Shown here: positions 10,017 to 26,995 of the stretch, in pieces | How positions within the stretch are numbered: position 1 is the first letter of the stretch | How the letters are laid out: each line of letters starts with the position of its first letter | Program-made: the position numbers and the translations under genes | DNA from: an uncultured Candidatus Saccharibacteria bacterium | GTDB lineage: Bacteria > Patescibacteriota > Doudnabacteria > UBA920 | Direction: 5' to 3' | DNA: 64,000 nucleotides | Assembly: GCA_964600695.1 (NCBI GenBank) | Contig: CAZRKK010000002.1 | Coordinates: 5,354 to 69,353, forward strand | Notes under the pieces: generated by a model | Databases searched by the model: none | The model's input: only the letters and a program-made list of their open reading frames with translations | What the model was told of the DNA's origin: nothing

Positions 10017-10034
10017 TTTTTAAAGAATAAATAT

Positions 10035-10616
10035 ATGAGCAGAATAGGAAAAAAACCAGTAATCTTAACTCAAGGCATCACCGCTGAGCTTAAGGATAAG
10101 CACCTCACTATCAAAGGTAGTAAAGGTACTTTAGAGTTGGATATTCACCCAAAAGTTTTAGTTGAAGTAAAAGATGGGGAAATCACTGTTGATGTTGCCA
10201 AGAAGGAAGACAAGCGCGAAAAAGCTCTTTGGGGCCTGTCTCGAGCTTTGGTACAGAATATGGTAGATGGATTAACAACTGGTTTTTCTAAGCAGTTAGA
10301 TATTGTTGGAGTTGGTTTTAAAGCAGAAATGCGTGGTCAAACTTTAGTTCTGAACTTAGGTTTTTCTCATGCTATTGATTTTGAAATTCCTGCCGGAATC
10401 GAAGTTAAAGTAGAAAAAGATCCTTCTAAAGTAACTATTGCTCAGTATCAAACAACTGTATCTCTTTCTGGAATCGATAAGCATTTAGTTGGTCAAGTTG
10501 CTGCTAATATCCGTGAGCTTAAAAAGCCAGAACCTTACAAAGGTAAAGGGATTCGTTATAGCGATGAAAATATCTTGCGTAAGGCAGGTAAGGTTGTTAA
10601 AGCAGTAGGAAAGTAA
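10035..10616 (+). CDS. rplF: 50S ribosomal protein L6.
   Basis: MSRIGKKPV... Two-domain L6 architecture. Confidence 0.9.
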   Translation: MSRIGKKPVILTQGITAELKDKHLTIKGSKGTLELDIHPKVLVEVKDGEITVDVAKKEDKREKALWGLSRALVQNMVDGLTTGFSKQLDIVGVGFKAEMRGQTLVLNLGFSHAIDFEIPAGIEVKVEKDPSKVTIAQYQTTVSLSGIDKHLVGQVAANIRELKKPEPYKGKGIRYSDENILRKAGKVVKAVGK

Positions 10617-10638
10617 CCTCTAATAGAGAAATAATTAT

Positions 10639-10992
10639 ATGAACAAACAAGAGCATAAAATTTTAAAGCACAAATTACGTAAGGGTCGTGTTCGAAGCCG
10701 CGTCAGCGGTACCGAAGCGAGACCTCGTTTAAGCGTGTTTCGTTCTAATTCTCAAATCTACGCTCAAGTAATAGATGATATTTCTGGTAAGACTGTAGCT
10801 GCTACTTCTAGCATCAATATCAAATCAGCAGGTAAGAAAGTTGATCAAGCCACAGCTGTTGGTAAAGAAATTGCTGCTAAGGCAATCGCCAAAGGTGTTA
10901 AAGCAGTAGTGTTCGATAGAGGCGGTTATAAGTATCATGGTCGTGTAAAAGCATTAGCAGAAAGCGCTCGTGAAGCTGGGTTACAATTCTAA
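10639..10992 (+). CDS. rplR: 50S ribosomal protein L18.
   Basis: L18 family ([18 protein letters not shown]...). Confidence 0.9.
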
Positions 10993-11005
10993 CTAATTTA
11001 AATAT

Positions 11006-11509
11006 ATGGAAAAAAGAACTCGTAGAAACAATTCAAGAGACGGCGGAGAAGCCCGTGAATTCGACCAAAAAGTGGTTGAGATTAAGCGTGTAACCCGTGT
11101 AGTTGCTGGTGGAAAACGTATGCGTTTTCGTGCACTTGTTGTAATTGGTGACCACAAAGGTAAAATCGGTATCGGTTTAAAGAAGGGGATGGATGTAACC
11201 GAAGCTGTAAACAAAGCTGTTAATGCTGCAAAGAAAAGCATGATCGTAGTACCAATTGTTAACGATACAGTTCCTCATCAAGTTAACATTAAGTATAAGT
11301 CTAGTAAGTTGTTAATGATGCCTGCTCGTCCTGGTACTGGTGTAATTGCTGGTGGTGCAGTTCGTAGCGTACTCGACCTTGCTGGTGTTAAGAATGTAAT
11401 CAGTAAAATGATTGGTTCTAACAACAAAACTAATAATGTCCGAGCCGCTTTCGAAGCTTTTAAAATGATGCGTAGTAAAGAAGAAATTTTAAAGAGCCGC
11501 GCAAAATAG
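11006..11509 (+). CDS. rpsE: 30S ribosomal protein S5.
   Basis: VVEIKRVTRVVAGGKRMRFRALVVIGD motif. Confidence 0.9.
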   Translation: MEKRTRRNNSRDGGEAREFDQKVVEIKRVTRVVAGGKRMRFRALVVIGDHKGKIGIGLKKGMDVTEAVNKAVNAAKKSMIVVPIVNDTVPHQVNIKYKSSKLLMMPARPGTGVIAGGAVRSVLDLAGVKNVISKMIGSNNKTNNVRAAFEAFKMMRSKEEILKSRAK

Positions 11510-11536
11510 TTCTCAGTTAAATTTAATTTCAATTAT

Positions 11537-11971
11537 ATGATCAAACTTCATCAATTAAAACGTCATCCAAAAGCTACAAAGCGCCGCAAAGTTGTCGGTC
11601 GTGGTATTGGTAGTGGTCACGGTACTTACTCTACTCGTGGTGCTAAGGGACAAAAGTCTCGTACAGGTCACTCTAAGTCTCCGGCACGTTTTGAAGGTGG
11701 TCGCCAACCATTGATTCGTCAAATTGGTAAACTTCGTGGATTCAAGAGCTTAGCTCCGAATGCATTTGCAGTTAAGTTGGATTTGTTAAACTCATTACCT
11801 GATGGTACAGAGGTTACATTAAATAGCTTAAAGGCACACGGCATCATTGATACTGGTGTTAAGAAGGTAAAGATTCTAAAAGGCGAACTTAAGCGAAAGC
11901 TAGTGGTTGCTGTTCCTGTTTCTGCTACTGCTAAGGCTTCTATTGAAGCTGCAGGCGGTAGTATCAAATAA
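11537..11971 (+). CDS. rplO: 50S ribosomal protein L15. Follows rpsE directly, with no rpmD (L30) between them.
   Basis: RRKVVGRGIGSGHGTYSTRGAKGQKSRTG motif. Only 27 nt separate rpsE and rplO. Confidence 0.9.
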   Translation: MIKLHQLKRHPKATKRRKVVGRGIGSGHGTYSTRGAKGQKSRTGHSKSPARFEGGRQPLIRQIGKLRGFKSLAPNAFAVKLDLLNSLPDGTEVTLNSLKAHGIIDTGVKKVKILKGELKRKLVVAVPVSATAKASIEAAGGSIK

Positions 11972-11981
11972 ACTTATTAAG

Positions 11982-12095
11982 AGCCTATGGCAATTATTAA
12001 TTCCTGTCGCTAAACTGCTACGTCTGCTAAAAATTTCTTCGAAACTTTTGCATACTGGGCAGTGATGCTCCTTGAATCAACAATTGCCATAGGCT
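11982..12095 (+). promoter_or_regulatory. Long-range 14-bp perfect inverted repeat (AGCCTATGGCAATT ... AATTGCCATAGGCT) spanning the rplO-secY spacer. Candidate structured RNA or processing element.
   Basis: Arms at 11982-11995 and 12082-12095. They would enclose an ~86-nt domain in the transcript. Confidence 0.4.
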
Positions 12096-12142
12096 TTAAA
12101 GTTTAATTAGACCTGATTTGAGGATTAAAGTATAATACAAAT

Positions 12143-13420
12143 ATGAATAAATTAAGCTTAATTTGGAAAACTAAAGATTTGCGTTGGAAGATCTTCATGG
12201 TCATGATGTTGCTTTTAGTGACTCGTGTTTTGGCTCATGTCCCAATTCCTGGGATTAGCGTCACTGGCTTGAAGGCTTTCTTCGAAAGCAATCAATTTTT
12301 AAACTTATTGAACGTTTTTTCTGGTGGTGGACTAAGTAACTTTTCTATCGCTATGCTTGGTGTTGGACCATACATCACAGCATCTATTATTATGCAGTTG
12401 TTGGTCATGATTGTTCCTTCACTTACAGAACTACAGAAAGAAAGTGGAGAAGCTGGTCGAGTTAAAATCAACCAGTACACTCGTTTTTTGACTTTGCCAT
12501 TAGCAGTTTTGTCTGGTTTCGGAACTATTCGATTATTACAAAGCCAAGGTGGGGCAGAGTTACTTGGAACTTTCTCTCCTTTCCAGTGGTTCCTAACTTT
12601 GTTAACAGTTACCGCTGGTACAATGTTGGTTATGTGGATCGGTGAAATCATTTCCGAATACGGAATTGGTAATGGTGTATCTTTAGTAATTTTCGCCGGT
12701 ATCGTTTCTCAGTTACCTAAGAGCGTTGGTTCGTTGGTTCAGTTATATGATCCAAGCCAATTACCAACCATTATTGGATTTGCTATTGTCGCTTTGATCG
12801 TTATCGCCAGTGTAGTATTTGTGACTGAAGCTCAGCGCAATGTCCCGGTTACGTATGCAAAGCGGGTGAGTGGAGATAAACAAGTTGGTGGAGTTAACTC
12901 ATTCTTACCGTTACGTCTTAACCAAGCAGGTGTTATTCCAATCATCTTCGCAATTTCATTATTGTTGTTCCCAGCGATTATTGCTCAGTTCTTCTTAAAT
13001 GCCAAGACTCCTTTGATTGCTGAATATGCCCAAAAAGCTATTGATTTTACAAATAATCAAGGCGTTTGGTATGGCGTATCTTACTTCCTATTAGTTGTTA
13101 TATTCACTTATTTCTACACTAATATTGTTGTAAATCCAGATGAAGTTTCCGAAAACATGCAACGCAGTGGTGGCTTTGTTCCTGGTATTCGCCCCGGGAA
13201 GCAGACTGCTGATTACTTATACAAAGTTTTGAACCGCATCACTTTGCCTGGATCCTTATTCCTTGGTTTAATCGCTATCCTGCCTTTCATCTTACAAACA
13301 TGGACAGGAACCCGAGCATTAACATTTGGTGGTACTGGATTGCTGATTGTAGTAGCGGTAGTAATTGAAAGTATCAAGCAAGTCGAGGCTCAGCTAACTA
13401 TGCACGACTATCAAAAATAA
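12143..13420 (+). CDS. secY: Preprotein translocase subunit SecY.
   Basis: 10-TM SecY family (MLGVGPYITASIIMQLL, GNGVSLVIFAGIV). TATAAT at 12131-12136 ends 6 nt before the ATG, so a leaderless transcript is possible. Confidence 0.95.
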   Translation: MNKLSLIWKTKDLRWKIFMVMMLLLVTRVLAHVPIPGISVTGLKAFFESNQFLNLLNVFSGGGLSNFSIAMLGVGPYITASIIMQLLVMIVPSLTELQKESGEAGRVKINQYTRFLTLPLAVLSGFGTIRLLQSQGGAELLGTFSPFQWFLTLLTVTAGTMLVMWIGEIISEYGIGNGVSLVIFAGIVSQLPKSVGSLVQLYDPSQLPTIIGFAIVALIVIASVVFVTEAQRNVPVTYAKRVSGDKQVGGVNSFLPLRLNQAGVIPIIFAISLLLFPAIIAQFFLNAKTPLIAEYAQKAIDFTNNQGVWYGVSYFLLVVIFTYFYTNIVVNPDEVSENMQRSGGFVPGIRPGKQTADYLYKVLNRITLPGSLFLGLIAILPFILQTWTGTRALTFGGTGLLIVVAVVIESIKQVEAQLTMHDYQK

Positions 13421-13426
13421 ATTATT

Positions 13427-13461
13427 AACTCCCTCTAGTAATTAGGGGGAGTTTTTTTATT
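13427..13461 (+). terminator. Rho-independent terminator after secY.
   Basis: aactccctc...gggggagtt hairpin plus ttttttt. Confidence 0.6.
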
Positions 13462-13481
13462 GGTATTTATTAGGAGTTTTG

Positions 13482-13490
13482 TGGTATAAT
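13482..13490 (+). promoter_or_regulatory. Extended -10 promoter element (TGgTATAAT) 9 nt upstream of ATG 13500.
   Basis: tggtataat at 13482-13490. Implies a leaderless or near-leaderless mRNA for the downstream acidic protein. Confidence 0.35.
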
Positions 13491-13499
13491 ATTCATATT

Positions 13500-13874
13500 A
13501 TGGCAGAAGAAATAAGAAAAATTCCTGGATTCGAATCAGAGCAATCTGCGGAACCAAATAGCAACGAGTCCCCAGAATCAGAACAGACTGAATCTCTAGA
13601 AGCATCGTCTTCGGAAACTCTGAGTGATAATAACTTAGACCAGCAGGATTTGAACGAGACACCAATTGAAGAAGAAGTCGATACATCTAACTTATCGATC
13701 GAATCAGCTTTAGAGCCCAAATCAGGAGTGACTGCTTCTGATTCTATTGCTTCCGAAAGTAACGATGAAGTTCTTTCTGAAAGATTGTTAGCCGACAGTA
13801 AAGAATTAGAGACTGCCACCGAAGCCCGTAAACTTTTAAATGATATCTTAGGCACAACCGAAACTAAAAACTAG
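13500..13874 (+). CDS. Hypothetical highly acidic, Ser/Glu-rich, likely disordered protein (~125 aa).
   Basis: The ORF track begins at TTG 13479. The ATG at 13500 (MAEEIRK...) fits the promoter geometry. Composition is dominated by E/S/D. Confidence 0.45.
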   Translation: MAEEIRKIPGFESEQSAEPNSNESPESEQTESLEASSSETLSDNNLDQQDLNETPIEEEVDTSNLSIESALEPKSGVTASDSIASESNDEVLSERLLADSKELETATEARKLLNDILGTTETKN

Positions 13875-13909
13875 GTTTGTAAAATAAAAGCAAAAAATAA
13901 AAATTATCA

Positions 13910-16468
13910 ATGCCTTTTGGATTTGAACTCAATACTGTAATTTATGCATCACTACTACTAGGAATTTTAGTAGTAGTGTTTTTGCTTGTCGCTGCTTATT
14001 ATATTCACAGGCATTGGTATTACAGTCATGTCATTTTACCCCGCACTAAAGAGTGGGTGTTTTTGGAAATTCAAATGCCAAAAGACAACAGCGAGGATAA
14101 AGAAAAATATCAACGCGATGAAGAAAAAAAATTACTAATTGGTATTGCCGAGCAATTATTCACAACTTTATCAGGAATTAGTCACACTAATTGGTTTTGG
14201 CAACCTAAAGAATATATAAGTTTTGAAATTGCGTGTACAGACAAAAAGATTTCCTTTTATATCAATTGTCCGCGTAAGCTTCAGGAGCTAATAGAAAAAC
14301 AAGTTCAAGCTCAGTACCCTCACGCTTTTATCGAGGAGATTAAAGGCTATAATCCCTTTCCAGAAACTGGGGAGATCGAAGCTACCGAGTTAAGATTGAC
14401 CAAGCCTTATATGTATCCTTTTCGTACTTACAAGAGTATGGAAACAGATCCATTGAATGCGTTAACAAACGCTATGTCAAAACTGAGCGATGGTGATGGG
14501 GCGGTTATTCAAATGATTTTGTATCCAGCAGGGGATCACTGGCAGCATCGTCCGCGGCACATGGCTTTAGAAATTCAGCAAGGTAAAAATCCGAACATTG
14601 TTGCCAAGAGTGCGTTTGGAAGATTTGCGCGCGAGGTAGGAAGCACAGCTAAGGATGGTGTCTTAGGTGGAACTCAGTTAAGTAAAGATCAAATGCAACA
14701 ACGTACCGATTTGTCGGGACGTTATTCGGCCATCAACTTAACTCCGATGCAACAAGACATGGTTAAGCGTTTCGAAGAAAAAGCTAGCCGCCCAGGCTTC
14801 TATACCAACATTCGTATTGTCACAGCATCACCAACTCCTGGAACAGCTAAAGTGAATATGCATAATTTAGTGTCTTCATTTTTGCAGTACAACATGCCGC
14901 CGTTTAATGGTTTTAGAGTTAAGCGTCGTGCTAAGAAGCGTATTATTAAAGATTATATTTTTAGAATTTATCGCCGCTACGGACGTAAGTCTATTTTAAA
15001 TACCGAAGAATTAACTAGTATTTGGCATCTTCCGACTCCATTTTTGGAAACACCTAATATTAAATGGTTGTTATCTAAAAAAGCTCCACCACCTATAAAC
15101 TTGCAACCAGAAGGAATATTACTAGGCCGAAATATATATCGTGGGCAGGAGACACCAATTCATATGGCACGTGATGATCGTCGTCGTCACATGTATATTT
15201 TGGGACGTACTGGTGTGGGTAAAACCGAAATCATGAAATACATGTCCGTTCAAGATATCAAGAACGGTGATGGAATTTGTATTATCGATCCTCATGGTGA
15301 TTTTATTGAAGATGTTTTACCTCACATTCCAAAAGAACGAGCCGAAGATGTAATCTTATTTGACCCATTCGATACCGACAGGCCGATGGGTTTGAACATG
15401 CTCGAAGTCACTAGTGAAGGTCAAAAAGATTTTGCTGTTCAAGAAATGATCTCTATCTTTTATAAATTAGTTACAGATCCTGCGATGCTTGGACCTATGT
15501 TCGAGCACAACATGCGTAATGCCATGCTAACCTTAATGGCTGACGAAGAAAATCCTGGAACTATTGTTGAAGTCCCACGTATATTTACGGACACTGAATT
15601 CCAAAAGTATAAAGTCTCTAAATTAAATGATCCTGTGGTAAGAGCATTTTGGGAGAAAGAAATGGCCAAGACTTCCGATTTTCATAAGTCGGAAATGTTA
15701 GGTTACTTAGTTTCTAAAGTAGGCCGCTTTGTAGAAAATTCCATGATGCGAAATATTGTTGGTCAACCAAAGAGTTCTTTTAACTTCCGTGATATCATGG
15801 ATAACAAAAAAATTCTTTTGGTGAATTTAGCAAAGGGTAAAGTAGGGGAGGTGAACGCAAAATTAATTGGCTTAATTTTAGTGAGTAAAATTCAAATGGC
15901 GGCATTGTCCCGTGCAGATATTCCAGAAAGCGAACGCCAAGATTTCTATTTATATGTTGATGAATTCCAAAACTTTATTACCGATGCTTTTTCTTCTATT
16001 TTGAGCGAAGCCCGTAAGTATCGATTGAATTTGATTATTGGTCATCAGTTCTTAGCTCAGTTGGGGCAAGCAGCTGGTGCGCAAGGTGCAGCTAGTAACG
16101 ATTTACGTGATGCTGTGTTTGGTAATGCTGGTAGTATGGTAACTTTCCGTATTGGTGTAGAAGATAGTGAAGTTATGGCAAAGGAGTTTGCACCAACTTT
16201 TAATGAGTTTGATTTATTAAATGTCGATAGATTTAATGCTTTTGTAAAGTTGATGATTAATGGAACAGCCAGCAAACCATTTAACATGGCCACATACCCC
16301 TTAGCTAAACCAACTGAAGATCAAAAGAAGACAGGGGATGCTATTCGACAGTTATCAAGGTTAAAATTTGGTCGTCCACGGGCCGAAGTTGAAGCAGAAA
16401 TCCTAGAAGCCAGCCAAGTTGCTGATATGATGGCGGCTGGTCCAGGGAGTATCGAGAAAACGGTTTAA
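13910..16468 (+). CDS. N-terminally membrane-anchored P-loop NTPase (852 aa). Most similar in motif pattern to conjugative coupling proteins (TraD/TrwB/VirD4, AAA_10 / T4SS DNA-binding type) or HerA/DUF87-like ATPases.
   Basis: One N-terminal TM helix. Walker A ILGRTGVGKTE (~aa 432). ICIIDPHGDF motif. Walker B-like LYVDEFQNF (~aa 680). C-terminal region Gln/Ala/Gly-rich. Confidence 0.55.
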   Translation: MPFGFELNTVIYASLLLGILVVVFLLVAAYYIHRHWYYSHVILPRTKEWVFLEIQMPKDNSEDKEKYQRDEEKKLLIGIAEQLFTTLSGISHTNWFWQPKEYISFEIACTDKKISFYINCPRKLQELIEKQVQAQYPHAFIEEIKGYNPFPETGEIEATELRLTKPYMYPFRTYKSMETDPLNALTNAMSKLSDGDGAVIQMILYPAGDHWQHRPRHMALEIQQGKNPNIVAKSAFGRFAREVGSTAKDGVLGGTQLSKDQMQQRTDLSGRYSAINLTPMQQDMVKRFEEKASRPGFYTNIRIVTASPTPGTAKVNMHNLVSSFLQYNMPPFNGFRVKRRAKKRIIKDYIFRIYRRYGRKSILNTEELTSIWHLPTPFLETPNIKWLLSKKAPPPINLQPEGILLGRNIYRGQETPIHMARDDRRRHMYILGRTGVGKTEIMKYMSVQDIKNGDGICIIDPHGDFIEDVLPHIPKERAEDVILFDPFDTDRPMGLNMLEVTSEGQKDFAVQEMISIFYKLVTDPAMLGPMFEHNMRNAMLTLMADEENPGTIVEVPRIFTDTEFQKYKVSKLNDPVVRAFWEKEMAKTSDFHKSEMLGYLVSKVGRFVENSMMRNIVGQPKSSFNFRDIMDNKKILLVNLAKGKVGEVNAKLIGLILVSKIQMAALSRADIPESERQDFYLYVDEFQNFITDAFSSILSEARKYRLNLIIGHQFLAQLGQAAGAQGAASNDLRDAVFGNAGSMVTFRIGVEDSEVMAKEFAPTFNEFDLLNVDRFNAFVKLMINGTASKPFNMATYPLAKPTEDQKKTGDAIRQLSRLKFGRPRAEVEAEILEASQVADMMAAGPGSIEKTV

Positions 16469-16509
16469 GTAGCTGTAAGCAGCCATAATTAGTAATAAGT
16501 CAGTGGGTA

Positions 16510-16538
16510 TTGACAAAATCAACTATTTGTGATATTAT
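16510..16538 (+). promoter_or_regulatory. Consensus sigma70 promoter TTGACA-17-TATTAT with an upstream TG (extended -10) for GC-rich cassette 1.
   Basis: ttgaca at 16510-16515, 17-nt spacer ending gtga, tattat at 16533-16538. Confidence 0.5.
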
Positions 16539-16593
16539 ATTCGCAGTAGTTTTTTTGTAGTTTAAATCAATTTAGTTGGAGGACTTTGTTAAT

Positions 16594-17064
16594 ATGTATA
16601 AAAACTCGTTGGTCATGAAGATGATCCTAACGTTTGCGGCCTTTAGCGCCGTCGTTGTATTCCTGAACTACGTGGTCGGCATGCCGACTACTAAGCGCAT
16701 GAACTTCGTCTTGATGAGCTATGGTGTTGGTTCGGCCACCATCTTGGCTCTCGCGGCCGTTTTTCCGAGCCGTCTGACATCGGCGCTGTGCCGTCTTGTG
16801 CAGATTGGTTGGGCAGTGGCCATCGTTCTCGGTGGTTTTGCTATGATTATTATCATTGTGGTTGGTTTGGGGCAGTTTAACCTGCCGTTCCTATCGCTAC
16901 AGTGGTATAGCCTGTTCATGGCTTTAGGAATCTTGGGGGCCAGCGTGTTCATGTTTGTCAACGACTCGTATTTTGAAGTCGTTAACGAATATGAAAGCAA
17001 AGCTGGGAAGCCTAAGGTGGTGACACCGCCGGCAAACAGCACTTCGTCGAGCGTTTCGGCATAG
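16594..17064 (+). CDS. Small 4-TM integral membrane protein (157 aa) encoded with atypical GC/CpG-rich codons.
   Basis: SD GGAGGA at 16578-16583. Four hydrophobic helices. Hydrophilic Ser/Thr/Pro tail. Codons tcg/ccg/gcg/ctg dominate, unlike the rest of the window. Confidence 0.5.
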   Translation: MYKNSLVMKMILTFAAFSAVVVFLNYVVGMPTTKRMNFVLMSYGVGSATILALAAVFPSRLTSALCRLVQIGWAVAIVLGGFAMIIIIVVGLGQFNLPFLSLQWYSLFMALGILGASVFMFVNDSYFEVVNEYESKAGKPKVVTPPANSTSSSVSA

Positions 17065-17091
17065 AAACTCCGCACAAGGGTTAGAAGTATT

Positions 17092-17128
17092 GGGTAAGAG
17101 CGAAAATATTCGCTTTTACCCTTTTTTT
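17092..17128 (+). terminator. Rho-independent terminator after cassette 1.
   Basis: gggtaagagcgaa aatatt cgcttttaccc hairpin plus ttttttt. Confidence 0.55.
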
Positions 17129-17169
17129 ATTGCCTAAAATTGCCATTTTAAAATTTCTGTTATCAGCTA

Positions 17170-17198
17170 TTGACAAAACATCAAAAATAGTGTATACT
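17170..17198 (+). promoter_or_regulatory. Consensus sigma70 promoter TTGACA-17-TATACT with an extended-10 TG for GC-rich cassette 2.
   Basis: ttgaca at 17170-17175, 17-nt spacer ending agtg, tatact at 17193-17198. Confidence 0.5.
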
Positions 17199-17233
17199 GT
17201 TACTTAAACTAAATATTGGTTAGAAAGTGAATT

Positions 17234-17277
17234 ACCTTCAGAAATTCAGATTTATCGAGATATGGTTTTCTGAAGGT
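17234..17277 (+). promoter_or_regulatory. 11-bp perfect inverted repeat (ACCTTCAGAAA / TTTCTGAAGGT) forming a stem-loop in the ~185-nt 5' leader of cassette 2.
   Basis: Arms at 17234-17244 and 17267-17277 with a 22-nt loop. Three further short hairpins follow (17276-17293, 17303-17326, 17331-17346) before SD AAGGAGG at 17366-17372. Confidence 0.35.
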
Positions 17278-17385
17278 CATGCACGTGTATGACTGTTGTA
17301 GCGCTGTAAATAAAAAAACAGCATTGTAACGGTCAATCACATGACCAAGTTTTCAAAAACAGCCTAAGGAGGGCTAATCAATACT

Positions 17386-18102
17386 ATGCAGAAATTCATT
17401 ATTTCGTTCGTTTTTGTCGCAATGTCACTTATGGCTGTTTCGTCGGCCTCGGCCCAGAATCCGGACTTGAACGTTCCGGTGCCTTCGGGAAAGACGCAGA
17501 CCACGAAGAGCCCGGACTTGAACGTTCCGGTGCCTAACAAGTCGGTTCAAAGTTCGGCTAACGTCTATAGGACGTACCGCAACACTACGGTCGTTAAGAA
17601 GTATTCCATGAACGGCGTCGACAAAGACGCTCGTGAAGTGAATGTCGCTCAGGACATTCGTATAAAAAAACTGGAAGACGGCAAGGCTAACTCGTCGGAC
17701 GTCGAAGCAGGATTTAAGTCGGTTGACGATCGTTTCGCGGCTAAGGATCAGGTGGATGCACGACAGGACCGAGAGCTCGGATATACTTTCTGGGCTTTCA
17801 TAATCATCCCGGTAGTCTTTCTGGTTCTGGCGTTGTTGTACTTCATGTTTGGAGGCAACAATAATAACGTTCAGGTTAACGGTGGTGGACATGCACCGGC
17901 ATACGTACCTCAGGCCCAGCCTGCAGTACAGCCGATACCATACTACCAGCCTATTCCTGCACAACCCGTTCCTGCGGCACAACCGGTTCCTGCAGCCAAC
18001 CAACAGCCAAGCGTAAATGTTCCGATCAATATTGCGGTCGAGCCGATTCAGATCGATCTCCGACCGTCGTTGCGTGGAACACCGCCGGCACCCGCTCAGT
18101 AG
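17386..18102 (+). CDS. Secreted or bitopic membrane protein (238 aa): signal peptide, duplicated PDLNVPVP motif, one TM helix, proline/glutamine-rich C-terminal tail. GC/CpG-rich codon usage.
   Basis: MQKFIISFVFVAMSLMAVSSASA-QN signal peptide with an AxA site. TM FWAFIIIPVVFLVLALLYFMF. Tail is PAxQP repeats. Confidence 0.55.
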   Translation: MQKFIISFVFVAMSLMAVSSASAQNPDLNVPVPSGKTQTTKSPDLNVPVPNKSVQSSANVYRTYRNTTVVKKYSMNGVDKDAREVNVAQDIRIKKLEDGKANSSDVEAGFKSVDDRFAAKDQVDARQDRELGYTFWAFIIIPVVFLVLALLYFMFGGNNNNVQVNGGGHAPAYVPQAQPAVQPIPYYQPIPAQPVPAAQPVPAANQQPSVNVPINIAVEPIQIDLRPSLRGTPPAPAQ

Positions 18103-18120
18103 TGAGCATCTCTCTTACAG

Positions 18121-18150
18121 AGAGCAAGGTAAAACTTGCTCTCTTTTTTC
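18121..18150 (+). terminator. Rho-independent terminator after cassette 2.
   Basis: agagcaagg taaaa cttgctct hairpin plus ttttttc. It is preceded by a ctctct tac agagag hairpin. Confidence 0.55.
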
Positions 18151-18212
18151 ATTTTTATAAAAAATAGTGGTATAATTAAAACAACTTTAAATTGTTAATT
18201 CGAAACAAAAAT

Positions 18213-21200
18213 ATGGCTAAAGCCGAAATGGCTCGTCAACCAGATCAAGGTCCAGAACCGGCAATTGACTTGTCGAAAACACTCAAAACCAGTGTAGATG
18301 ATGCTAAAAATAGAGCACGACCACGAGGCCGTGATGTTGATTTTGCTATCCAGCAGAATGATATGCGCGAAGCTAATTTAAGACAGGGTCATCCAGACAT
18401 ATCTGATAAAAAAGAGTTTATTCGACGGGAAAAGGCAAAGAACGAGGCGCGTAGTAAGTCTAAATCTGAAAAGGGACCTAAAAAGAATGAAGTAATTCTT
18501 CAACCTATAGCTCCGGCAGAAAAATTAAAAGCTGTAGTTAACCAAGAAAAAGCCGCGCAGAAACAAAAACCAGAGCAAAAGCCGGAAACACAGCCAGAAC
18601 AAAAGATAGCTCAACAAGAACAAAAAGCAGCCCAAGAAACCAGTAAAGTTGTAGAAAGTGTAGTTCAGGAAAGCACTAAAGAGATGTCCGCAGAAGTGGA
18701 CAAGGCACTTGCCGTACATGCAATTAGTCCAGAACATGCTCAGCAAGCCAAAGCAGTTATAAACAATGAACAGGTAAAGCAAGGAGTTTTTTCTAGAGCT
18801 TTTGGTGCTATAAAAGACAAAGCAGTGGGTGTTAAAGAGTGGTTTGCAGATAGTCCTAGGTTAACTTCACTTTTGGTTGGTGCGGGTACTGGTATGGGTG
18901 TTCGTTACGCTGTTAAGGCTGGGTTTATTGCTGCATTTGGAGCAAACTTACCTTGGTTGGTTGCCGCAGGTGCCACTGCAGGTGGTTTACTAGAAGGTGG
19001 GCGTTCATTTTGGCGTGAATCAAAATCCTATCAATCTAAAGAGATTATGGATCGGTTCAGAAGCGCGGATTATCTAGAAAAGGCAGCCATGCTTTCTAAG
19101 CTTGAGGAAGCATACAAAACCCAAAGATTTGATGCGTCTCCAGAAGGTTACCAAGAAATTGGTACAGCTTTGGCTCATGCTCGAACAGAAATGCAACTTG
19201 AATTAGACAAAAAGGATGGCAAGTTTGCTAATCATTCCGATCGAGATAAAATTCAATATATTTTAAATTTATCACAAGGTATTAAGGGTGAAATTCATAA
19301 AGATAATCGTGGTAAGGAAGCCAGAAAGCTTATTCGTGACATCGAAAAGAGCTTAGAGTACAAGCGTGATTTTAAAGGTGTCTTACAGAACAAAAAGATG
19401 GTAGTTGCCAAGGCAGCTCTTAAAGGTGCAGCTTATGGTGGGCTGGGTTCATTAATCGGTGGGGCAGTATCACACTATTTCTTCGAAAGTGGAACAACTC
19501 AAACTGTCAGCCATGTTGTCGAGAACAGACCTACTGTGGCAGATCATTTTACAAAACATTTAGATCATCGAGGTTTAACCGGTGGTGCTCGTGATTCATT
19601 GCATGATTTGATAGAAGAACAAAGAGGTATTGATCCTAATTTTGCCGAAGGAGTCACTGTAGAGCAACTAGTTTATGCAGAAGACACTCTCGCTAAAGAG
19701 GCTATTAAAAATGGCGTTAAGTCTGGCGTTTCGGAGCATACTTGGACTCATGATGAGTTGATGCGAGCCTTAGAAAAATCTGGAGCGGTTGGAGATAGTT
19801 CTACGCTTACTGAAGCAGGAGAAAGGAATATCGGACGATTGATTTCGCATCGACCTCATTTCTTGTCCGAAGCTACCAAAGAGAAAATGCTTGATTTTAC
19901 ACCTAAAGATTTTAATGTAGTTGTTGAGCAAATTACTTCTCAACCAGAAAATATCGTTCTCTCAAACGAAGATTATGCAGCTATTATTGGTGCACTAACC
20001 CTAGTAGCGGCTTCAGAAGTGGCTAGTGCCGCCGACAGAAGAATCGCTAAGAATCGGCTTGAACAAATGCAAGCGAATCCTCCAACTGGCCAGCCAGGGG
20101 ATGGTGTAGAAACAGCTCCAGCTAATAATGTTGTATGGCCTACAGAAGGTGTTCTTACTGCAGAAGAAGCACGTGTGGATAATAGAAAATTCCCTAATGG
20201 CCCACCACCGTCACCATTTGATGGTAATGTAGAAACTACTCCTACACCTAAACCAGAGGGTAGTCCTTTTGATGACGAAAAAAAGCAAAATGCAGAGTCG
20301 ACTACTAATAAAGCAGGTAAGGTTGAGGAAATTGACGAAGATGTTGAAGCTCAAGTGGATGTACAAGATTTGCCTGGTGTAGAAAAAATCAAAGACTCGG
20401 AAGTTACTCCCGATGCAATTAATCGAAAACTGAAGAGTGCAAAAGTTAATGCAGAAGTAGTACCATGGCCTTTAGAAAAGATTACCAACAAACAGAAAGG
20501 ACAAATTAACAGATTAACTGATTTATATATTTCTTCGGCACGCAAGTTAAACGCCTTAAATATTACAAATAAGGTTGTCTTGAATTTTTATCCAACAGGT
20601 TCAAGAGAGTTAGATTTTACAGATTCTGAATTTACCGCTGGTATTCCTCTTAGTGATAAAACTTATAATAAAAAGAGCTTCGAGAGCTTAGTAGATAGGA
20701 TGATTGAAACTAAGATTTCCGAAAAGTTTGCTGAAATACAAAATAACTATGCATTTCAAACAGAGATGCCTGTCATAGGAAATTCAGAGGATGATCAAGC
20801 TGTTGAACAGTATAAAGCTTTAGATAAATTCCAGCGAAACATGGAAGCAATCGACGCAAAAGAATTAAAACGACTAACTTCTGGACTTAAGAAAGTTACA
20901 ATTGGTGACTATTCATTTATAGGTACTGATGAGGTGGTTCTACCAATGTTTATTAGAGACAACAGGGGTTATCATTATAAATCTTTCAAGCCTAACCAAT
21001 TAAAGGGTATGTTGAAAGAGTATTCCAAAGATCGGTTTGCGTTAAAGCCGATGGATTTAAAAGAGCAGAATGATAAATATCCAAATATTGGAGCAGATAA
21101 AAACTTTTACGATAATATCGAGGAAGCTGAGAGGATAAAAGCAGAAGAATTAGTATACAGTGTTATTGAAAATGAATTCAAAGATGGTTTTCCACCAAAC

Positions 21201-21806
21201 GTAAAGGTATTGTTTTCGGATAGATTCCAGTCAAAGCCAGGTGTCTTATACCTCGACATGTCAAAGTTTGACCAAGCATATATTAGTCGTCAGCTTCACC
21301 AAGGATTGCGTCGTTCTGCGCCAGATCGTTTACAGCGCACTCCTGGTCCTGTTAAAGAGCGTTTAAAGCGGGTTTCTCCTGATTATGGGAATAAAAAGTC
21401 TGACCAAGACAAAGCCATTGAAGCAGCTGTTGATAGAATAATTCGACCCGAAGATTGGGAGAAAAAAGAAACTGGGCCAGCTAATTTAAACCATATTGAA
21501 GAACAGAACGGAGAAGATGAGCTCTATAGTTTACTTGGAGACATAGATAAGAAATATCCAGGGTCTATCTCCGAAAGCATGCAAAAAAAGATCTCTAGTT
21601 ACTTAAAAGACAATAATTTATCAGCAGAGGATTTACTAACCGCCGATAAATTACCTAAAATTACGAGTGTTCTTCCTAAAAAACTTGAGCAGTACATAGC
21701 CGAAGAGTCGTTTGCTAAACTAGAAAAACTGGCAATGGCCGACGAGGATTATACTGACGAAGGCATTAGATTAAAAAATCAGTTAGAAGAATTCATCAAA
21801 AAATAA
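18213..21806 (+). CDS. Giant hypothetical protein (~1198 aa from ATG 18213; the ORF track starts at TTG 18192). K/Q/E-rich low-complexity N-terminus, a Gly/Ala-rich amphipathic membrane-hairpin-like segment, then a long hydrophilic charged body.
   Basis: TGgTATAAT at 18168-18176 upstream. Segment LTSLLVGAGTGMGVRYAVKAGFIAAFGANLPWLVAAGATAGGLL. No recognisable catalytic motifs. Confidence 0.6.
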   Translation: MAKAEMARQPDQGPEPAIDLSKTLKTSVDDAKNRARPRGRDVDFAIQQNDMREANLRQGHPDISDKKEFIRREKAKNEARSKSKSEKGPKKNEVILQPIAPAEKLKAVVNQEKAAQKQKPEQKPETQPEQKIAQQEQKAAQETSKVVESVVQESTKEMSAEVDKALAVHAISPEHAQQAKAVINNEQVKQGVFSRAFGAIKDKAVGVKEWFADSPRLTSLLVGAGTGMGVRYAVKAGFIAAFGANLPWLVAAGATAGGLLEGGRSFWRESKSYQSKEIMDRFRSADYLEKAAMLSKLEEAYKTQRFDASPEGYQEIGTALAHARTEMQLELDKKDGKFANHSDRDKIQYILNLSQGIKGEIHKDNRGKEARKLIRDIEKSLEYKRDFKGVLQNKKMVVAKAALKGAAYGGLGSLIGGAVSHYFFESGTTQTVSHVVENRPTVADHFTKHLDHRGLTGGARDSLHDLIEEQRGIDPNFAEGVTVEQLVYAEDTLAKEAIKNGVKSGVSEHTWTHDELMRALEKSGAVGDSSTLTEAGERNIGRLISHRPHFLSEATKEKMLDFTPKDFNVVVEQITSQPENIVLSNEDYAAIIGALTLVAASEVASAADRRIAKNRLEQMQANPPTGQPGDGVETAPANNVVWPTEGVLTAEEARVDNRKFPNGPPPSPFDGNVETTPTPKPEGSPFDDEKKQNAESTTNKAGKVEEIDEDVEAQVDVQDLPGVEKIKDSEVTPDAINRKLKSAKVNAEVVPWPLEKITNKQKGQINRLTDLYISSARKLNALNITNKVVLNFYPTGSRELDFTDSEFTAGIPLSDKTYNKKSFESLVDRMIETKISEKFAEIQNNYAFQTEMPVIGNSEDDQAVEQYKALDKFQRNMEAIDAKELKRLTSGLKKVTIGDYSFIGTDEVVLPMFIRDNRGYHYKSFKPNQLKGMLKEYSKDRFALKPMDLKEQNDKYPNIGADKNFYDNIEEAERIKAEELVYSVIENEFKDGFPPNVKVLFSDRFQSKPGVLYLDMSKFDQAYISRQLHQGLRRSAPDRLQRTPGPVKERLKRVSPDYGNKKSDQDKAIEAAVDRIIRPEDWEKKETGPANLNHIEEQNGEDELYSLLGDIDKKYPGSISESMQKKISSYLKDNNLSAEDLLTADKLPKITSVLPKKLEQYIAEESFAKLEKLAMADEDYTDEGIRLKNQLEEFIKK

Positions 21807-21809
21807 GCC

Positions 21810-22124
21810 ATGATTAAAGATACAATAGACAAGGTTCTTAAAGAGTTAAACGTCAACAATCTATCTGATGATGATAAGTTTGCGGTGATGGAGCAACTTA
21901 CAGAGCACTTTAACAAAATCATTCTAGACACAGTACTAGCTAATCTTAATGACGAGCAACTCCTCGAGTTTAAGAATATGGTTGATCTGGAGGATTTAGA
22001 TAAAATGGAAGAAGGAATTGCTCTTATTGTAGCCAAAATTCCCGCAATAAACTTTAAAATCGAAGAAGCCATTAATAATGAAATCGCTCATATTAAAGAA
22101 TCCAAAGCGATAATCGATCGATAG
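21810..22124 (+). CDS. Small acidic all-helical protein (104 aa), translationally adjacent to the giant protein (3-nt gap). Candidate partner or chaperone.
   Basis: ATG 21810 follows the TAA at 21804-21806. pI is clearly acidic (D/E-rich). Leucine-rich heptad-like pattern. Confidence 0.5.
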   Translation: MIKDTIDKVLKELNVNNLSDDDKFAVMEQLTEHFNKIILDTVLANLNDEQLLEFKNMVDLEDLDKMEEGIALIVAKIPAINFKIEEAINNEIAHIKESKAIIDR

Positions 22125-22234
22125 TTACTTTCTTTTTAAACATAGTTGTGGTATAGTTCTGGTAACTGTCTAGGACTGAATTTATTGCGGAAACAGAAAT
22201 CAAAATTTAAAAATCAAAGAAAACCAAAAACAAA

Positions 22235-22882
22235 ATGGATAAATCAGCAAATTTTGCTTTGATCGTGCAAATGATCGAAGCTGCAGAAAAGAATATTCAA
22301 TCGGCTAAGCATTTATTGCGAGAAATGGCCGGTGGAACTGTATCTAAATCTTCCACTAACTTTTTAGAAAAGGCTAGTGGTCTTGATGTTAGTCAAGGTG
22401 GTAAAGTTGTCGAGGGTGTGTTTGATGGACAAAACATGATTGGTCCGGATAGCAAACAGTACCCAGTTCCAGCTAATTATGCATCCAAATCCAAATTAGT
22501 TGAAGGTGATGTGCTTAAATTAACAATCGCAGATGACGGCTCGTTTATTTATAAGCAGATTGGGCCAGTTGAGCGTCGCAAGTTGATTGGTGTGTTAATG
22601 CAGGACGAAAATGGTGATTATAAAGTTATCGCAGATGGCAAAACTTTTCGGGTTTTATTGGCTTCACTTACTTATTTTAAAGCTCAGGGTGGTGACGAAG
22701 TAACTATTGTTGTCCCTAGTGAAGGTGATACTCAATGGGCTGCAGTAGAAAATGTGATCAAGCATTTAGGTGGTGACGGAAGTTCCGACGGGGAATTTAG
22801 TGCATCCGCTGGGCTGCAAGACCAAAAAGATGAAGACATGGAAGCTGAGGGTTTAGCCTCTGGCGAGACAGAAGAATTTTAA
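22235..22882 (+). CDS. Hypothetical protein (215 aa) with an acidic C-terminal tail.
   Basis: Clean ORF with an A-rich leader. No family recognised. Confidence 0.5.
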   Translation: MDKSANFALIVQMIEAAEKNIQSAKHLLREMAGGTVSKSSTNFLEKASGLDVSQGGKVVEGVFDGQNMIGPDSKQYPVPANYASKSKLVEGDVLKLTIADDGSFIYKQIGPVERRKLIGVLMQDENGDYKVIADGKTFRVLLASLTYFKAQGGDEVTIVVPSEGDTQWAAVENVIKHLGGDGSSDGEFSASAGLQDQKDEDMEAEGLASGETEEF

Positions 22883-22909: not shown

Positions 22910-23578
22910 ATGGAAGGTCAGTTGCTTACATTCAATCAAAAACTAACTCAATTGCTGGCAAATAAACCAGTTATTTTGCAAATTCTAAAATTTGCTGCTA
23001 TAGGTGCTCTTAACACAGCTTTAGATTTTATTATTCTCAATTATGTTACTAAAGCTTTTGGTGTGGAATCAGGACTTAATTTAGGCCTTTTAAATGTCAT
23101 TAGTTTTGGAGCAGCAATGATTCAGAGCTACTTATGGAATCGGGCATGGACCTTTGCAGCATCTAATTCTTCTCCTTTATCTAATCTATTTCGGTTGATA
23201 GTTGTTGGTGGTTTGGGGTTTGTTAGCTTTTTATTGGTGGTTATAGGTGGAATTTACAGCGTAGTCGATACCTATTACTTATTCATTTTAATAGTATTTT
23301 TAATTGCAGAAATCTTGATTTGGTATGGTTTTAACCTTAATTTAGGTAGTGATTCCAGTGTTGGTGTCGGTCATCAGTTTGGAATATTCATGATTGTTAG
23401 TTTAATTGGGTTATTGATAAATAGCGGAATTGTAGTAATTGCTTCTATGGCTCTAGCCCCGACATTATCTAATTTAATTAATGTGGATTCTGTAAAGAAT
23501 GTAGCTAAGATCCTGGCAACCATGGTTTCTTTGATCTGGAATTTTGTAGGTTATAAGCTATTTGTGTTCAAGAAATAA
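22910..23578 (+). CDS. GtrA-like polytopic membrane protein (222 aa). Apparent tandem GtrA-type halves.
   Basis: KFAAIGALNTALDFIILNYV...SYLWNRAWTF and a C-terminal NFVGYKLFVFKK pattern, typical of the GtrA family (polysaccharide/lipid-linked glycan translocation). Confidence 0.45.
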   Translation: MEGQLLTFNQKLTQLLANKPVILQILKFAAIGALNTALDFIILNYVTKAFGVESGLNLGLLNVISFGAAMIQSYLWNRAWTFAASNSSPLSNLFRLIVVGGLGFVSFLLVVIGGIYSVVDTYYLFILIVFLIAEILIWYGFNLNLGSDSSVGVGHQFGIFMIVSLIGLLINSGIVVIASMALAPTLSNLINVDSVKNVAKILATMVSLIWNFVGYKLFVFKK

Positions 23579-25360: not shown

Positions 25361-26995
25361 ATGTTTACTAACCCAGAACAAAAAAATAAAAAGATTACCT
25401 TTGCAGTAATAGCGATGGCGGTCGTTGCTTTGGCCGTGGTAACAATATGGCAACCAGGAGAGTTAAGCTTCACGGATAAAACAGATTACAATGCTGAGAC
25501 ACAAAGAGCTCAGGCTGAATTAGCACAATACAAAGCCTTTTTAGCGGAACTTGAACCAAATTACGAAGCTAGTCAACAGTTATTAAAAAAGATTGCTAGT
25601 GCAGATGTAGTTCGTGCAGAAGTTGAGCAGACTTTACAGACAAAGCAGAAAATTGTTATTCCACAAATCGCCAACTCCGAATTAAATATCAGCGATCGTA
25701 AGGATAAAGACTTTGTTTTAAATTATTTGAACACAGTTAGTTCCATGGTGGCTAATTACAAAAATGCAGTTCAACCCGGAACTAATGATTTATTTGTTGA
25801 TAATGCCAACTCTGCTAGTTTGGCTAGGGCTAAGTCGGAAACCGATAGATTTTTAGCAAATTTACGCGGTGTGTCTGTGCCTGCTAGTTTAGTTGAATTA
25901 CACAAAGCTAATATTGTTTCTTTTCAAAAGTACGGACAAATTTTTAATGATGCAGCAAGTTATAGCGAGGGAAGTAACATCGATCCATGGCCAAGTTTCT
26001 ACCAGAGTTACGCTGTGATCGATAATAGATTAGCTGTAGTAAGTAACGAATTAACAAAAGTTGGAAATCAGTTTGCTTTAGCCGAAGAGTTAGAGCGCGC
26101 AACAGGGCCACCATTTATTAAAGTAGCTCAAGCTCAATTAGGTGGTGTGGTAGTAGTTTCTACAGATTTAAAGCGTGATATTTTGGAAGGCATTAAAGAA
26201 GGTTTGGCTAAGTCTTTTGCAAACTTTTCCATGAAGATGCTAGATAAATTAGTCTCTCATATCGAAAAAAGTTTTGCTATTGCTAGTCAACTATATTATT
26301 CCAATGAGCTTGGTAGGTTCTATTCTGTTGAGTATATGAAGAAATTTGTTTCTGATCCACTGGACCAAAGTATTATCCAAAAGTTTTTACCCGAATACTT
26401 TTGTATCGCGCCAAACAAAAAAGATTTGAATAAAATCTTTGTAGCCAAGGCAGCCGAAAATGTGGGTAATGATATAACCATTAATCCGAATGATCCAGAC
26501 TTTGTAGAAAAACTAGCACGGTTGGGAAGTGATGAAAAAAATTATCCACAATGGTGGGAAGGTTACTATCAAGGTTTGGCAGCACAAACAAAGGCAGAGG
26601 CCGAAAGTGCTTCTACTAAAGAAGTTTTGAGCCCTGGAGTAAAAACCGGGAGAGACATAATTACTAACCAAGTTAACAAAACAGTTTCGGCAATTTTCAG
26701 TGTACAAGAAGCGGCAATTTCTGGAGCAATTAACTTAGGAACCAATAACACAGGTAGCCCTGTGAGTCAGTTAGTTTCTGGTGTGGTAGAAGGCTTGGTT
26801 AATAAATTTGTGTTTACCCCAATAAGTGGTGGAGCTTCTAGTGGCGGTGGGATTGGCGTTATCCAAGAAAAAAATGTTTGTCTACAAACTCAAGAGATTA
26901 AGCCTTTGATTCCATTACCTTCATCGGAATACGAAACACCTACAGGAACAACTACAGCTCCAGTTACATCACCACCGTTTGTACCACGTAATTAA
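25361..26995 (+). CDS. Hypothetical N-terminally membrane-anchored extracytoplasmic protein (544 aa) with a Gly/Ser/Thr/Pro-rich C-terminus.
   Basis: TM ITFAVIAMAVVALAVVTIW. No known domain recognised. Confidence 0.5.
   Translation: MFTNPEQKNKKITFAVIAMAVVALAVVTIWQPGELSFTDKTDYNAETQRAQAELAQYKAFLAELEPNYEASQQLLKKIASADVVRAEVEQTLQTKQKIVIPQIANSELNISDRKDKDFVLNYLNTVSSMVANYKNAVQPGTNDLFVDNANSASLARAKSETDRFLANLRGVSVPASLVELHKANIVSFQKYGQIFNDAASYSEGSNIDPWPSFYQSYAVIDNRLAVVSNELTKVGNQFALAEELERATGPPFIKVAQAQLGGVVVVSTDLKRDILEGIKEGLAKSFANFSMKMLDKLVSHIEKSFAIASQLYYSNELGRFYSVEYMKKFVSDPLDQSIIQKFLPEYFCIAPNKKDLNKIFVAKAAENVGNDITINPNDPDFVEKLARLGSDEKNYPQWWEGYYQGLAAQTKAEAESASTKEVLSPGVKTGRDIITNQVNKTVSAIFSVQEAAISGAINLGTNNTGSPVSQLVSGVVEGLVNKFVFTPISGGASSGGGIGVIQEKNVCLQTQEIKPLIPLPSSEYETPTGTTTAPVTSPPFVPRN

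Follow-up and report, generated by a model that had tools for sequence, protein, structure and literature searches.

A giant protein with a dedicated small acidic partner, encoded by a conserved gene pair in Parcubacteria-type bacteria

The stretch of DNA analyzed here (the window) comprises 64,000 nucleotides of contig CAZRKK010000002.1 (GenBank assembly GCA_964600695.1) from an uncultured Candidatus Saccharibacteria bacterium placed by GTDB among the Doudnabacteria. Two adjacent genes on its plus strand are the subject of this work: a giant gene at 18213-21806, encoding 1,197 amino acids (aa) followed by a stop codon, and a small partner gene at 21810-22124, encoding 104 aa. Our analysis uncovered that these genes form a conserved, coupled pair across Parcubacteria-type bacteria of the Candidate Phyla Radiation (CPR). 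The reading that we favor, with a probability of roughly one in two, is that this two-gene operon encodes a resident membrane complex specific to the Parcubacteria/Paceibacterota lineage.

An earlier note on this DNA, made from the letters alone, had singled out an open reading frame (ORF) of ~1198 aa starting at ATG 18213 as the largest of the window, had described its product as hydrophilic and charged with a KQE-rich N-terminal part, and had placed its stop codon 3 nt before a 104-aa ORF for an acidic protein. The ORF listing and composition bear this out. The giant ORF is the longest of the window (the runner-up encodes 852 aa), K, E, D and R make up 31% of its product, and residues 101-200 are rich in Q, A, K and E. 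Its stop codon TAA at 21804-21806 is followed by GCC and then by the ATG of the small gene at 21810, and the small protein has a net charge of -11 and an isoelectric point of 4.46. An alternative upstream start, TTG 18192, would extend the giant to 1,204 aa; the ATG at 18213 is supported by the N-termini of the homologues, which read MAKRE, MANRE or MPKRE. Against the 88%-identical orthologue from locus L007 (L numbers designate the homologous loci, P numbers individual homologues), the ratio of nonsynonymous to synonymous substitution rates (dN/dS) was 0.094 for the giant and 0.026 for the small protein; it was at most 0.12 in any region of the giant and as low as 0.028 for aa 195-425. Both genes are real and under strong purifying selection. 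The earlier note had also raised the prospect that the giant might be a fusion or misassembly artefact, which it is not, since the same architecture recurs in >13 independent assemblies.

The conservation of the pair was established from both sides. A word-indexed search gave 12 homologues of the giant (26-97% identity) and 11 of the small protein (57-95% identity), the named homologues coming from Candidatus Doudnabacteria, Parcubacteria and Paceibacterota. The word-indexed search with a profile added no further members, and an exhaustive profile search put the giant family at 67 representatives with E < 1e-3, 45 of them < 1e-10. A genome scan by exact peptide patterns returned 4 loci. Pairing was tested by running a hidden Markov model (HMM) of the small protein against every six-frame ORF of the fetched close and distant loci. 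Exactly one match was found per locus, always adjoining the giant, in the window and in all 17 loci fetched via giant homologues. In the window and in all fetched loci long enough for both genes (about 14 distinct genomes) the two are adjacent, distant and rearranged contexts included; the co-occurrence in other genomes that the earlier note had proposed to look for is therefore present in every evaluable locus. In the reverse direction, a search with only the small protein yielded five metagenome loci, and an ORF matching the giant core lay immediately upstream in 4 of the 4 that were long enough. All-against-all clustering of the neighboring genes of 15 loci left the giant and the small protein as the only genes common to all contexts, with the small protein clustering in 14 of the 15 by BLAST and the fifteenth being found by HMM. 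Each fetched locus carries one copy of the module, and no copy was found in viral contigs by two pattern-limited scans.

The adjacency persists when the surroundings change. In the window and in L001, L003, L004, L006, L011, L012 and L014, as well as in L007 and L008 from the genome scan, the small gene is directly downstream of the giant gene in a region that runs from SecY through a gene for an ATPase resembling type IV coupling proteins (T4CP) to the pair and then to GtrA and dnaX. The small gene is also directly downstream in L015 and L016, among unrelated housekeeping genes and with flanks that lack the T4CP-like gene. It lies directly upstream of the giant gene in L013, within an island that encodes a reverse transcriptase, Fic, a Schlafen-like ATPase, a PP2C phosphatase and a kinase, and it is adjacent on the opposite strand in L017, where FtsZ is directly upstream of the giant.

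HMMs of single domains, taken from the alignment, showed that the part of the giant shared by the whole family is limited to a core of aa ~195-615, which matches 69 retrieved proteins; the N- and C-terminal regions vary, and family members range from ~780 to 2,260 aa. All segments described here are given with their plus-strand coordinates. The variable N-terminal region (aa 1-194; 18213-18794) is of low complexity and rich in K, Q, E and A, lacks a signal peptide, and was modeled with a predicted local distance difference test score (pLDDT) < 50. Its HMM is strong in 12 close homologues and weak in four further members, and the region is predicted to be cytoplasmic. The core then contains a Gly/Ala-zipper hydrophobic hairpin (aa 217-262; 18861-18998) with several invariant glycines and an AAFGAxxP motif that is invariant in the close clade. 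Its invariant columns are G223, G227, K235, A240-A244, P247, A252, G253 and G257, the pattern in distant members is G...G...R......G......AGAxAG, and it would either cross the membrane as two helices or dip into it as a re-entrant hairpin. A conserved basic helical loop follows (aa 263-395; 18999-19397), which is net positive in 93% of 58 members with a mean of +5.4. The third hydrophobic helix (aa 396-423; 19398-19481), predicted to run from inside to outside, carries the glycine zipper AAxxGAxxGxxGxxxG, which reads AAxxGAxxGAxGGxxG in distant members and is similar, at the level of composition, to the PrP glycine-zipper segment. Next comes a conserved acidic alpha/beta domain (aa 426-585; 19488-19967), net negative in 91% of 55 members with a mean of -6.6, with the motifs GxTxxARxxxH...ExLVYAED...HxLS (GxTxxARxxxHDYL, ExLVYAED and HxLS in distant members); domain-only profile searches gave no Pfam or PDB match for it. 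The core ends with a fourth hydrophobic helix (aa 586-610; 19968-20042), whose 19-residue Kyte-Doolittle mean is 1.75 and which would run from outside to inside. The single Gly/Ala-rich hairpin described in the earlier note does exist, at aa ~217-262, but it is not the only such element, as the helices at aa 396-423 and 586-610 are also hydrophobic.

Beyond the core, a Pro-rich linker (aa 611-719; 20043-20369) was modeled without secondary structure and with pLDDT < 50. It contains the conserved motifs RFPNGPPPSPF and PKPEGSPF (aa ~640-682, ~20130-20260), short Pro-rich sequences that look like docking motifs for a partner and are doubled in the homologue P0011. The linker is followed by a clade-specific alpha/beta domain (aa 720-1045; 20370-21347) and by a helical C-terminal tail (aa 1046-1197; 21348-21803), which is the fastest-evolving part, with 73% identity to the L007 orthologue and a dN/dS of 0.12. 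Outside the close clade, the HMM of this ~480-aa C-terminal region finds just two fragments and one partial match. In the giant alignment (A1, columns ~1100-1500), the first C-terminal alpha/beta module is internally duplicated in P0007 and P0009, and a 'FKNWTDSDFKRLL'-type motif is repeated in long inserts of P0010.

AlphaFold2 modeling of the giant from a 13-sequence alignment gave a mean pLDDT of 53.6, with confident parts at aa 441-530 (beta-alpha-alpha-beta, pLDDT 70-85), aa 720-1045 (alpha/beta) and aa 1100-1197 (helical). A Foldseek comparison of the model with the PDB returned nothing at E < 1. The beta-alpha-alpha-beta arrangement gave the impression of a LysM-like domain at aa ~445-512, which the domain-only Pfam and PDB profile searches did not support. 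The clade-specific domain at aa 720-1045 shows a weak resemblance to a zincin fold. The C-terminal half of the giant contains no HExxH and no conserved His or Glu, so that assignment as a zincin metalloprotease was rejected and the model points at most to a degenerate, non-catalytic zincin-like fold.

Family searches were equally negative for the giant, which has no match in Pfam, NCBIfam, PHROGs or PADLOC, in agreement with the earlier note, which had recognized no catalytic motif in it. When 41 distant members were compared with Pfam, just one SHOCT and one GvpG match appeared, and no informative accessory domain. Profile searches of the PDB gave only noise for the giant alignment A1 (factor H binding protein, E 0.04) and nothing for the outer-domain alignment A5. 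Alignment A3, of distant members, matched YaxA at E 0.01 over a region absent from the window protein and also gave composition matches to the PrP glycine zipper. The small-protein alignment A2 had a weak match of coiled-coil type to the Giovannonibacteria protein 7o97 (E 0.016), which we judged uninformative. No toxin, enzyme, adhesin or secretion domain was found for the pair in any HMM or fold search. The giant family is restricted to Parcubacteria/Paceibacterota and is without a Pfam or NCBIfam model or a structural relative. A phage tape-measure protein with its chaperone was also considered and rejected, given the lack of a PHROG match, the housekeeping context and the lack of copies in the viral-contig scans.

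The hydrophobic peaks of the giant recur at conserved spacing throughout the family, the third helix lying ~150 aa after the hairpin and the fourth ~200-270 aa beyond that. Of 68 members, 53 have a fourth peak of 1.0 or more, and in 31 it reaches 1.4 or more. Among these 31 members with a strong fourth helix, 84% have more K and R in the 15 residues after it than before it, and no member of the family has an N-terminal signal-like segment. Because this family-wide charge bias fits the positive-inside rule, we infer that the N- and C-termini are both on the inside: the chain would start in the cytoplasm, pass through the hairpin, return to a cytoplasmic loop, expose the ~160-aa domain of aa 426-585 as its only extracytoplasmic part, and end in the cytoplasm.

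This predicted topology bears directly on the proposal of the earlier note that the giant may be a surface fibre or adhesin. Such a protein would be anchored by its N-terminal membrane region, and the small protein would be an unrelated neighbor or a regulator. The giant is indeed very long, hydrophilic and of low complexity, its Pro-rich linker after the hydrophobic region recalls wall-spanning segments, around half of the members have only a weak fourth helix, a GtrA gene is nearby, and genes for SLT-domain proteins occur at two loci. However, it lacks a signal peptide, and neither an adhesin domain nor a repeat domain is present. It has instead four conserved hydrophobic segments, and the charge bias around helix 4 would bring the chain back into the cytoplasm, so that both long termini are predicted to be cytoplasmic with ~160 aa outside. 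The C-terminal domains are under purifying selection, and the strict adjacency of the small gene argues against an unrelated neighbor. We therefore regard a surface fibre as distinctly unlikely.

The small protein was described in the earlier note as helical with a leucine-heptad pattern. The helical part of this description stands, as AlphaFold2 predicts five helices with a pLDDT of 82.7 and a predicted template modeling score of 0.72. The heptad part does not, since 10.4% of shuffled sequences reach the observed score, which is not above chance. The protein is modeled as a compact acidic five-helix bundle rather than a coiled coil. A signal peptide is absent, and acidity is general, as each of the 15 distinct small proteins has a net charge between -7 and -13. 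A fold search of the model gave generic helical-bundle matches only, none of them specific to a secretion-chaperone family, and family scans gave only the sub-threshold matches DUF5667 and HTH_22 (Pfam) and Csx1 (PADLOC, E 0.0087). Eight of 13 orthologues match DUF5663 (PF18908) weakly, with a best E of 1.5e-4, and the window protein has no match at E up to 1. Precomputed annotations also mark several orthologues as PF18908, qualified as 'weak' or 'faint' in several loci, and leave P0016-P0019 unmarked. With a similar size of ~100-110 aa, the small protein may be a borderline relative of DUF5663. Our literature search found no mention of DUF5663 or DUF8128, the latter being a domain of the neighboring ATPase discussed below.

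The HMM score of the small protein drops in step with that of the giant core, though the C-terminal domains differ completely between loci. Since its divergence follows the core and not the variable C-terminus, the region of the giant to which it binds should lie in the core. The basic loop at aa 263-395 would be the most plausible docking site, because it is the only large cytoplasmic piece of the core and is of opposite charge.

The same covariation speaks to another possibility entertained in the earlier note, a toxin with its immunity protein. In a polymorphic pair of this kind, a conserved N-terminal region would deliver variable C-terminal toxins and the small protein would neutralize them. 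The family does combine a conserved core with variable C-termini, its small gene is immediately downstream, and glycine-zipper toxins with small partner genes do exist, TelE (PMC10434224) being an example. Here, however, the small protein belongs to the same family beside giants with unrelated C-termini, tracking the core without any covariation with the tips, and its dN/dS is 0.026, in keeping with the low values found everywhere in the pair. Arrays of orphan immunity genes are absent and each locus has a single copy, the small gene is upstream in L013 and on the opposite strand in L017, and the glycine zippers lie in the conserved core and not in a variable toxic tip. The search for C-terminal toxin domains that the earlier note had suggested found none (Pfam, NCBIfam, PHROGs and PADLOC for the window protein, and Pfam for the 41 distant members), and HMM and fold searches gave no toxin or delivery domain such as LXG, RHS, PAAR or CdiA. 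A toxin/immunity pair is thus extremely unlikely and already largely refuted. The TelE-type LXG effectors of the type VII secretion system b (PMC10434224) share with the pair the glycine-zipper motifs and the small genes beside a large protein. They differ in that the window protein carries its zippers in the conserved core instead of a toxic C-terminus and has a conserved rather than variable partner. Family scans with Pfam and the other libraries detected neither an LXG domain nor type VII secretion genes.

Sequence signals also bound the two genes. An intrinsic-terminator-like hairpin with a T-run at 18119-18144 (plus strand; 10-bp stem with 5 GC pairs and a TTTTTTCATTT tail) closes the unit of the upstream 238-aa gene and separates that unit from the giant gene. 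An extended -10 motif, TGGTATAAT, is found at 18168-18176 (plus strand), 37 nt 5' of the giant ATG. The next one, TGGTATAGT, at 22149-22157 (plus strand), lies 5' of the gene for a 215-aa protein and sets the downstream limit. Given the terminator and the extended -10 signals on either side, we read the giant and small genes as a two-gene transcription unit of their own. The window has 8 copies of the motif TGGTATART where 1.04 would be expected (at 13482, 18168, 22149, 23637, 46371 on the minus strand, 48962, 52067 and 56938 on the minus strand). Except for the copy at 13482, they lie between genes and just 5' of gene starts, and the motif is probably the main promoter element of the organism. 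Because the copy at 13482 falls inside the listed ORF 13479-13874, the true start of that ORF is probably further downstream.

Within the unit, no evident ribosome-binding site is seen at the start of the small ORF. The spacing between the genes is a 3-nt gap in the window, a 4-nt gap in L001, and a 4-nt overlap in L003, L006 and L012. The overlaps and the lack of an evident ribosome-binding site indicate that the small gene is probably translationally coupled to the giant. In the window, both ORFs share a reading frame with only TAA GCC between them (21804-21812). Stop-codon readthrough is nevertheless unlikely, and a fusion of the two ORFs was ruled out, because the spacing is not frame-conserved in other genomes and no fused homologue exists among those retrieved.

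A secretion machinery might be suspected from the gene for an orphan VirD4/TrwB-like ATPase of 852 aa at 13910-16468 (plus strand), which has a T4CP domain and an N-terminal membrane helix. It strongly matches phrog_5156 (E 2.8e-94) and also PADLOC mad8 (E 2.9e-16), and the domain DUF8128 is taken from the precomputed annotation of its orthologues. The gene, with one small ORF between it and SecY on its 5' side, has a transcription unit to itself and lies 1.7 kb upstream of the giant. Of the T4CP homologues of Patescibacteria, which number 5,713 in 2,918 genomes, most are reported not to be near virB4 and may have been recruited to other functions (Quinonero-Coronel et al. 2025, PMC12102498). 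The window ATPase is such a homologue, not next to virB4, and is syntenic with the pair in one large clade. Compared with the giant family and its 67 representatives, T4CP homologues are far more widespread, and no operon link joins the ATPase to the pair, so that the association may be one of synteny only. No VirB4 or other type IV secretion gene was found among the window proteins scanned; a type III secretion family match was likewise absent from these proteins, which represent part of the window ORFs.

The giant could instead be a secreted or host-inserted protein with the small protein as its dedicated chaperone, exported via the orphan VirD4-like ATPase or another route. Its glycine-zipper hairpins would then enter the membrane of a target (host) cell, the small protein would keep it soluble and secretion-competent, and the pair would be comparable to VirE1-VirE2 or to a translocator of type III secretion and its class II chaperone. 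Such a role would suit a small, acidic, helical and probably translationally coupled partner, as well as a giant with weakly hydrophobic Gly/Ala-rich hairpins and no signal peptide. The ATPase gene lying 1.7 kb upstream and syntenic in 9 of 15 loci, and the possible recruitment to other functions of the patescibacterial T4CP homologues that are not near virB4 (PMC12102498), would also fit. On the other hand, the ATPase gene belongs to a separate transcription unit, with two terminators and two promoters between it and the giant, and at 6 of 15 loci the flanks do not contain it, among them L013, L015, L016 and L017, where the pair persists. The family-wide positive-inside bias is the mark of a resident polytopic membrane protein, purifying selection acts in every region without a fast-evolving interface, the fold matches of the small protein are generic with none specific to a secretion-chaperone family, and the synteny is of the housekeeping kind with a single copy per locus. 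The C-terminal tail of the giant is its least conserved part and holds no family-wide motif. We consider export unlikely, if less so than a surface fibre.

In the type IV secretion of Agrobacterium, VirE1 has ~65 aa and is encoded upstream, and VirE2 is a soluble single-stranded DNA-binding protein that is not known to have conserved transmembrane segments. The window pair is like VirE2-VirE1 in having a large protein and a small acidic helical one from an adjacent coupled gene, with a VirD4-type ATPase gene nearby. It differs in showing no sequence or fold similarity to them and in that the T4CP-like gene is missing from several of its loci. With IpaB-IpgC and YopB-SycD it shares adjacent genes for a largely helical, hairpin-bearing protein and a small acidic all-helical partner. 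Class II chaperones, however, are tetratricopeptide repeat (TPR) proteins of ~150 aa, whereas the small protein of the window is predicted to be a 104-aa five-helix bundle without a TPR match, no type III secretion context was seen among the window proteins scanned, and the charge bias of the giant indicates a resident membrane topology. A type III chaperone fold, whether a class I alpha/beta dimer or a class II TPR fold, was rejected for the small protein. The pair functionally resembles VirE2-VirE1 or IpaB-IpgC, and equally membrane proteins with small dedicated cytoplasmic subunits, and by the tests run it is a member of none of these.

The window itself is part of the core housekeeping chromosome of a CPR/Patescibacteria genome. 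It has a GC content of ~38% and nearly all of its genes on one strand, starting with a ribosomal-protein operon and SecY and continuing with dnaX, HtrA, RuvX and genes of glycolysis and the pentose-phosphate pathway, in addition to RecJ and an EPSP-synthase-family (MurA-like) gene. The polytopic charge signature of the giant, the single copy and shared gene order of the module, its location in housekeeping DNA and the purifying selection in every region are the reasons why we favor a resident membrane complex.

In such a complex, the giant would most likely stay in the cytoplasmic membrane of the cell that produces it. Its charged N-terminus would lie in the cytoplasm, the Gly/Ala-zipper hairpin in the membrane and the basic helical loop again in the cytoplasm. 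The glycine-zipper helix would lead outwards to the acidic ~160-aa alpha/beta domain, and the fourth helix would lead back in to the Pro-rich linker and the ~480 aa of clade-specific, non-catalytic domains in the cytoplasm. The small protein, made from the same mRNA and probably by coupled translation, would be an obligate cytoplasmic subunit or an assembly chaperone that binds the core in its conserved cytoplasmic part, with the basic loop of aa 263-395 as the most plausible site. The near-invariant glycine-zipper helices suggest tight helix packing or oligomerization, possibly a channel-like assembly, and the complex could be an envelope-spanning scaffold or conduit and not an exported weapon.

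Several observations weigh against this model. The topology is based on Kyte-Doolittle hydrophobicity and charge counts only, the hydrophobic segments of the window protein are marginal (19-residue means of 1.15-1.75) and have AlphaFold2 pLDDT < 50, and a strong fourth helix is present in just 31 of 68 members. If helix 4 did not span the membrane, the C-terminal ~770 aa would be outside and the surface-protein reading would be revived. A small acidic helical partner beside a protein with weakly hydrophobic hairpins is also typical of secretion chaperones of membrane-inserting substrates, the VirD4-like ATPase gene is syntenic in 9 of 15 loci, and no giant-small fusion was seen among the family members retrieved.

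Other genes accompany the module with varying regularity. The next commonest neighbors after the pair itself are the 215-aa protein (22235-22882, plus strand) and the GtrA-family membrane protein (22910-23578, plus strand), both found in 11 of 15 loci, L017 with its different upstream context included, followed by the T4CP-like ATPase in 9 of 15, all 9 sharing the SecY-T4CP-like gene order. Between the T4CP-like gene and the giant, the window encodes two small envelope-type proteins, each with its own promoter and terminator signals and kept, by BLAST, in the close clade only. The first is a 162-aa protein with several hydrophobic segments (16576-17064, plus strand), and the second is the 238-aa protein (17386-18102, plus strand). 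At its N-terminus the latter has a signal-like segment; it also has PDLNVPVP repeats, a single hydrophobic segment further along and a tail rich in Pro and Gln. After dnaX in this clade, a conserved protein of ~540-550 aa with an N-terminal hydrophobic segment and no Pfam family is encoded at 25361-26995 (plus strand) and is present in 8 of 15 loci.

Among the other loci, large SLT (lytic transglycosylase) domain proteins are encoded downstream of the module in two cases (L011 14354-17158 and L017 7631-9406), and in one distant genome FtsZ (Pfam Tubulin) is encoded directly 5' of the giant homologue (L017 1026-2522). GtrA, the 215-aa protein, the SLT-domain proteins and FtsZ are neighbors compatible with an envelope-related role of the module, and are no proof of it. 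The family member of the L013 locus (5201-21061) has 1,686 aa, and its surroundings look like a mobile or defence island. The Schlafen-like ATPase there is of the Schlafen/AlbA_2 type, the protein kinase is a weak match, and an HTH_17 protein is encoded as well.

A bolder model would join the pair and the ATPase. The giant family would be a Parcubacteria-specific glycine-zipper pore or translocator that a DUF5663 partner keeps soluble and that is passed on to the orphan VirD4-like (DUF8128) ATPase, to be inserted into the envelope or the membrane of a host cell. We hold this to be very unlikely. If true, it would provide ultra-small epibiotic CPR bacteria with a conduit to their hosts and would explain the abundance of T4CP homologues away from virB4 in Patescibacteria.

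Neither Pfam nor NCBIfam has a model for the giant family, which is also without a structural relative or a literature of its own, and its partner is known only as a DUF. Our analysis defines, for two 'hypothetical proteins', a two-gene module with its conserved core, proposes a membrane topology that can be tested and a candidate interface for binding, and removes a tempting toxin/effector annotation as unsupported. As no new mechanism is shown, the module is not categorically new, and CPR genomes hold many such uncharacterized families. We rate it as a robust and lineage-defining combination of a large membrane protein with a dedicated small acidic partner, and as a costly one for a minimal genome. 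Since a 3.6-kb gene with an inseparable partner, both under purifying selection, is a large investment in a tiny CPR genome, the module likely matters for the cell envelope or for cell-cell contact.

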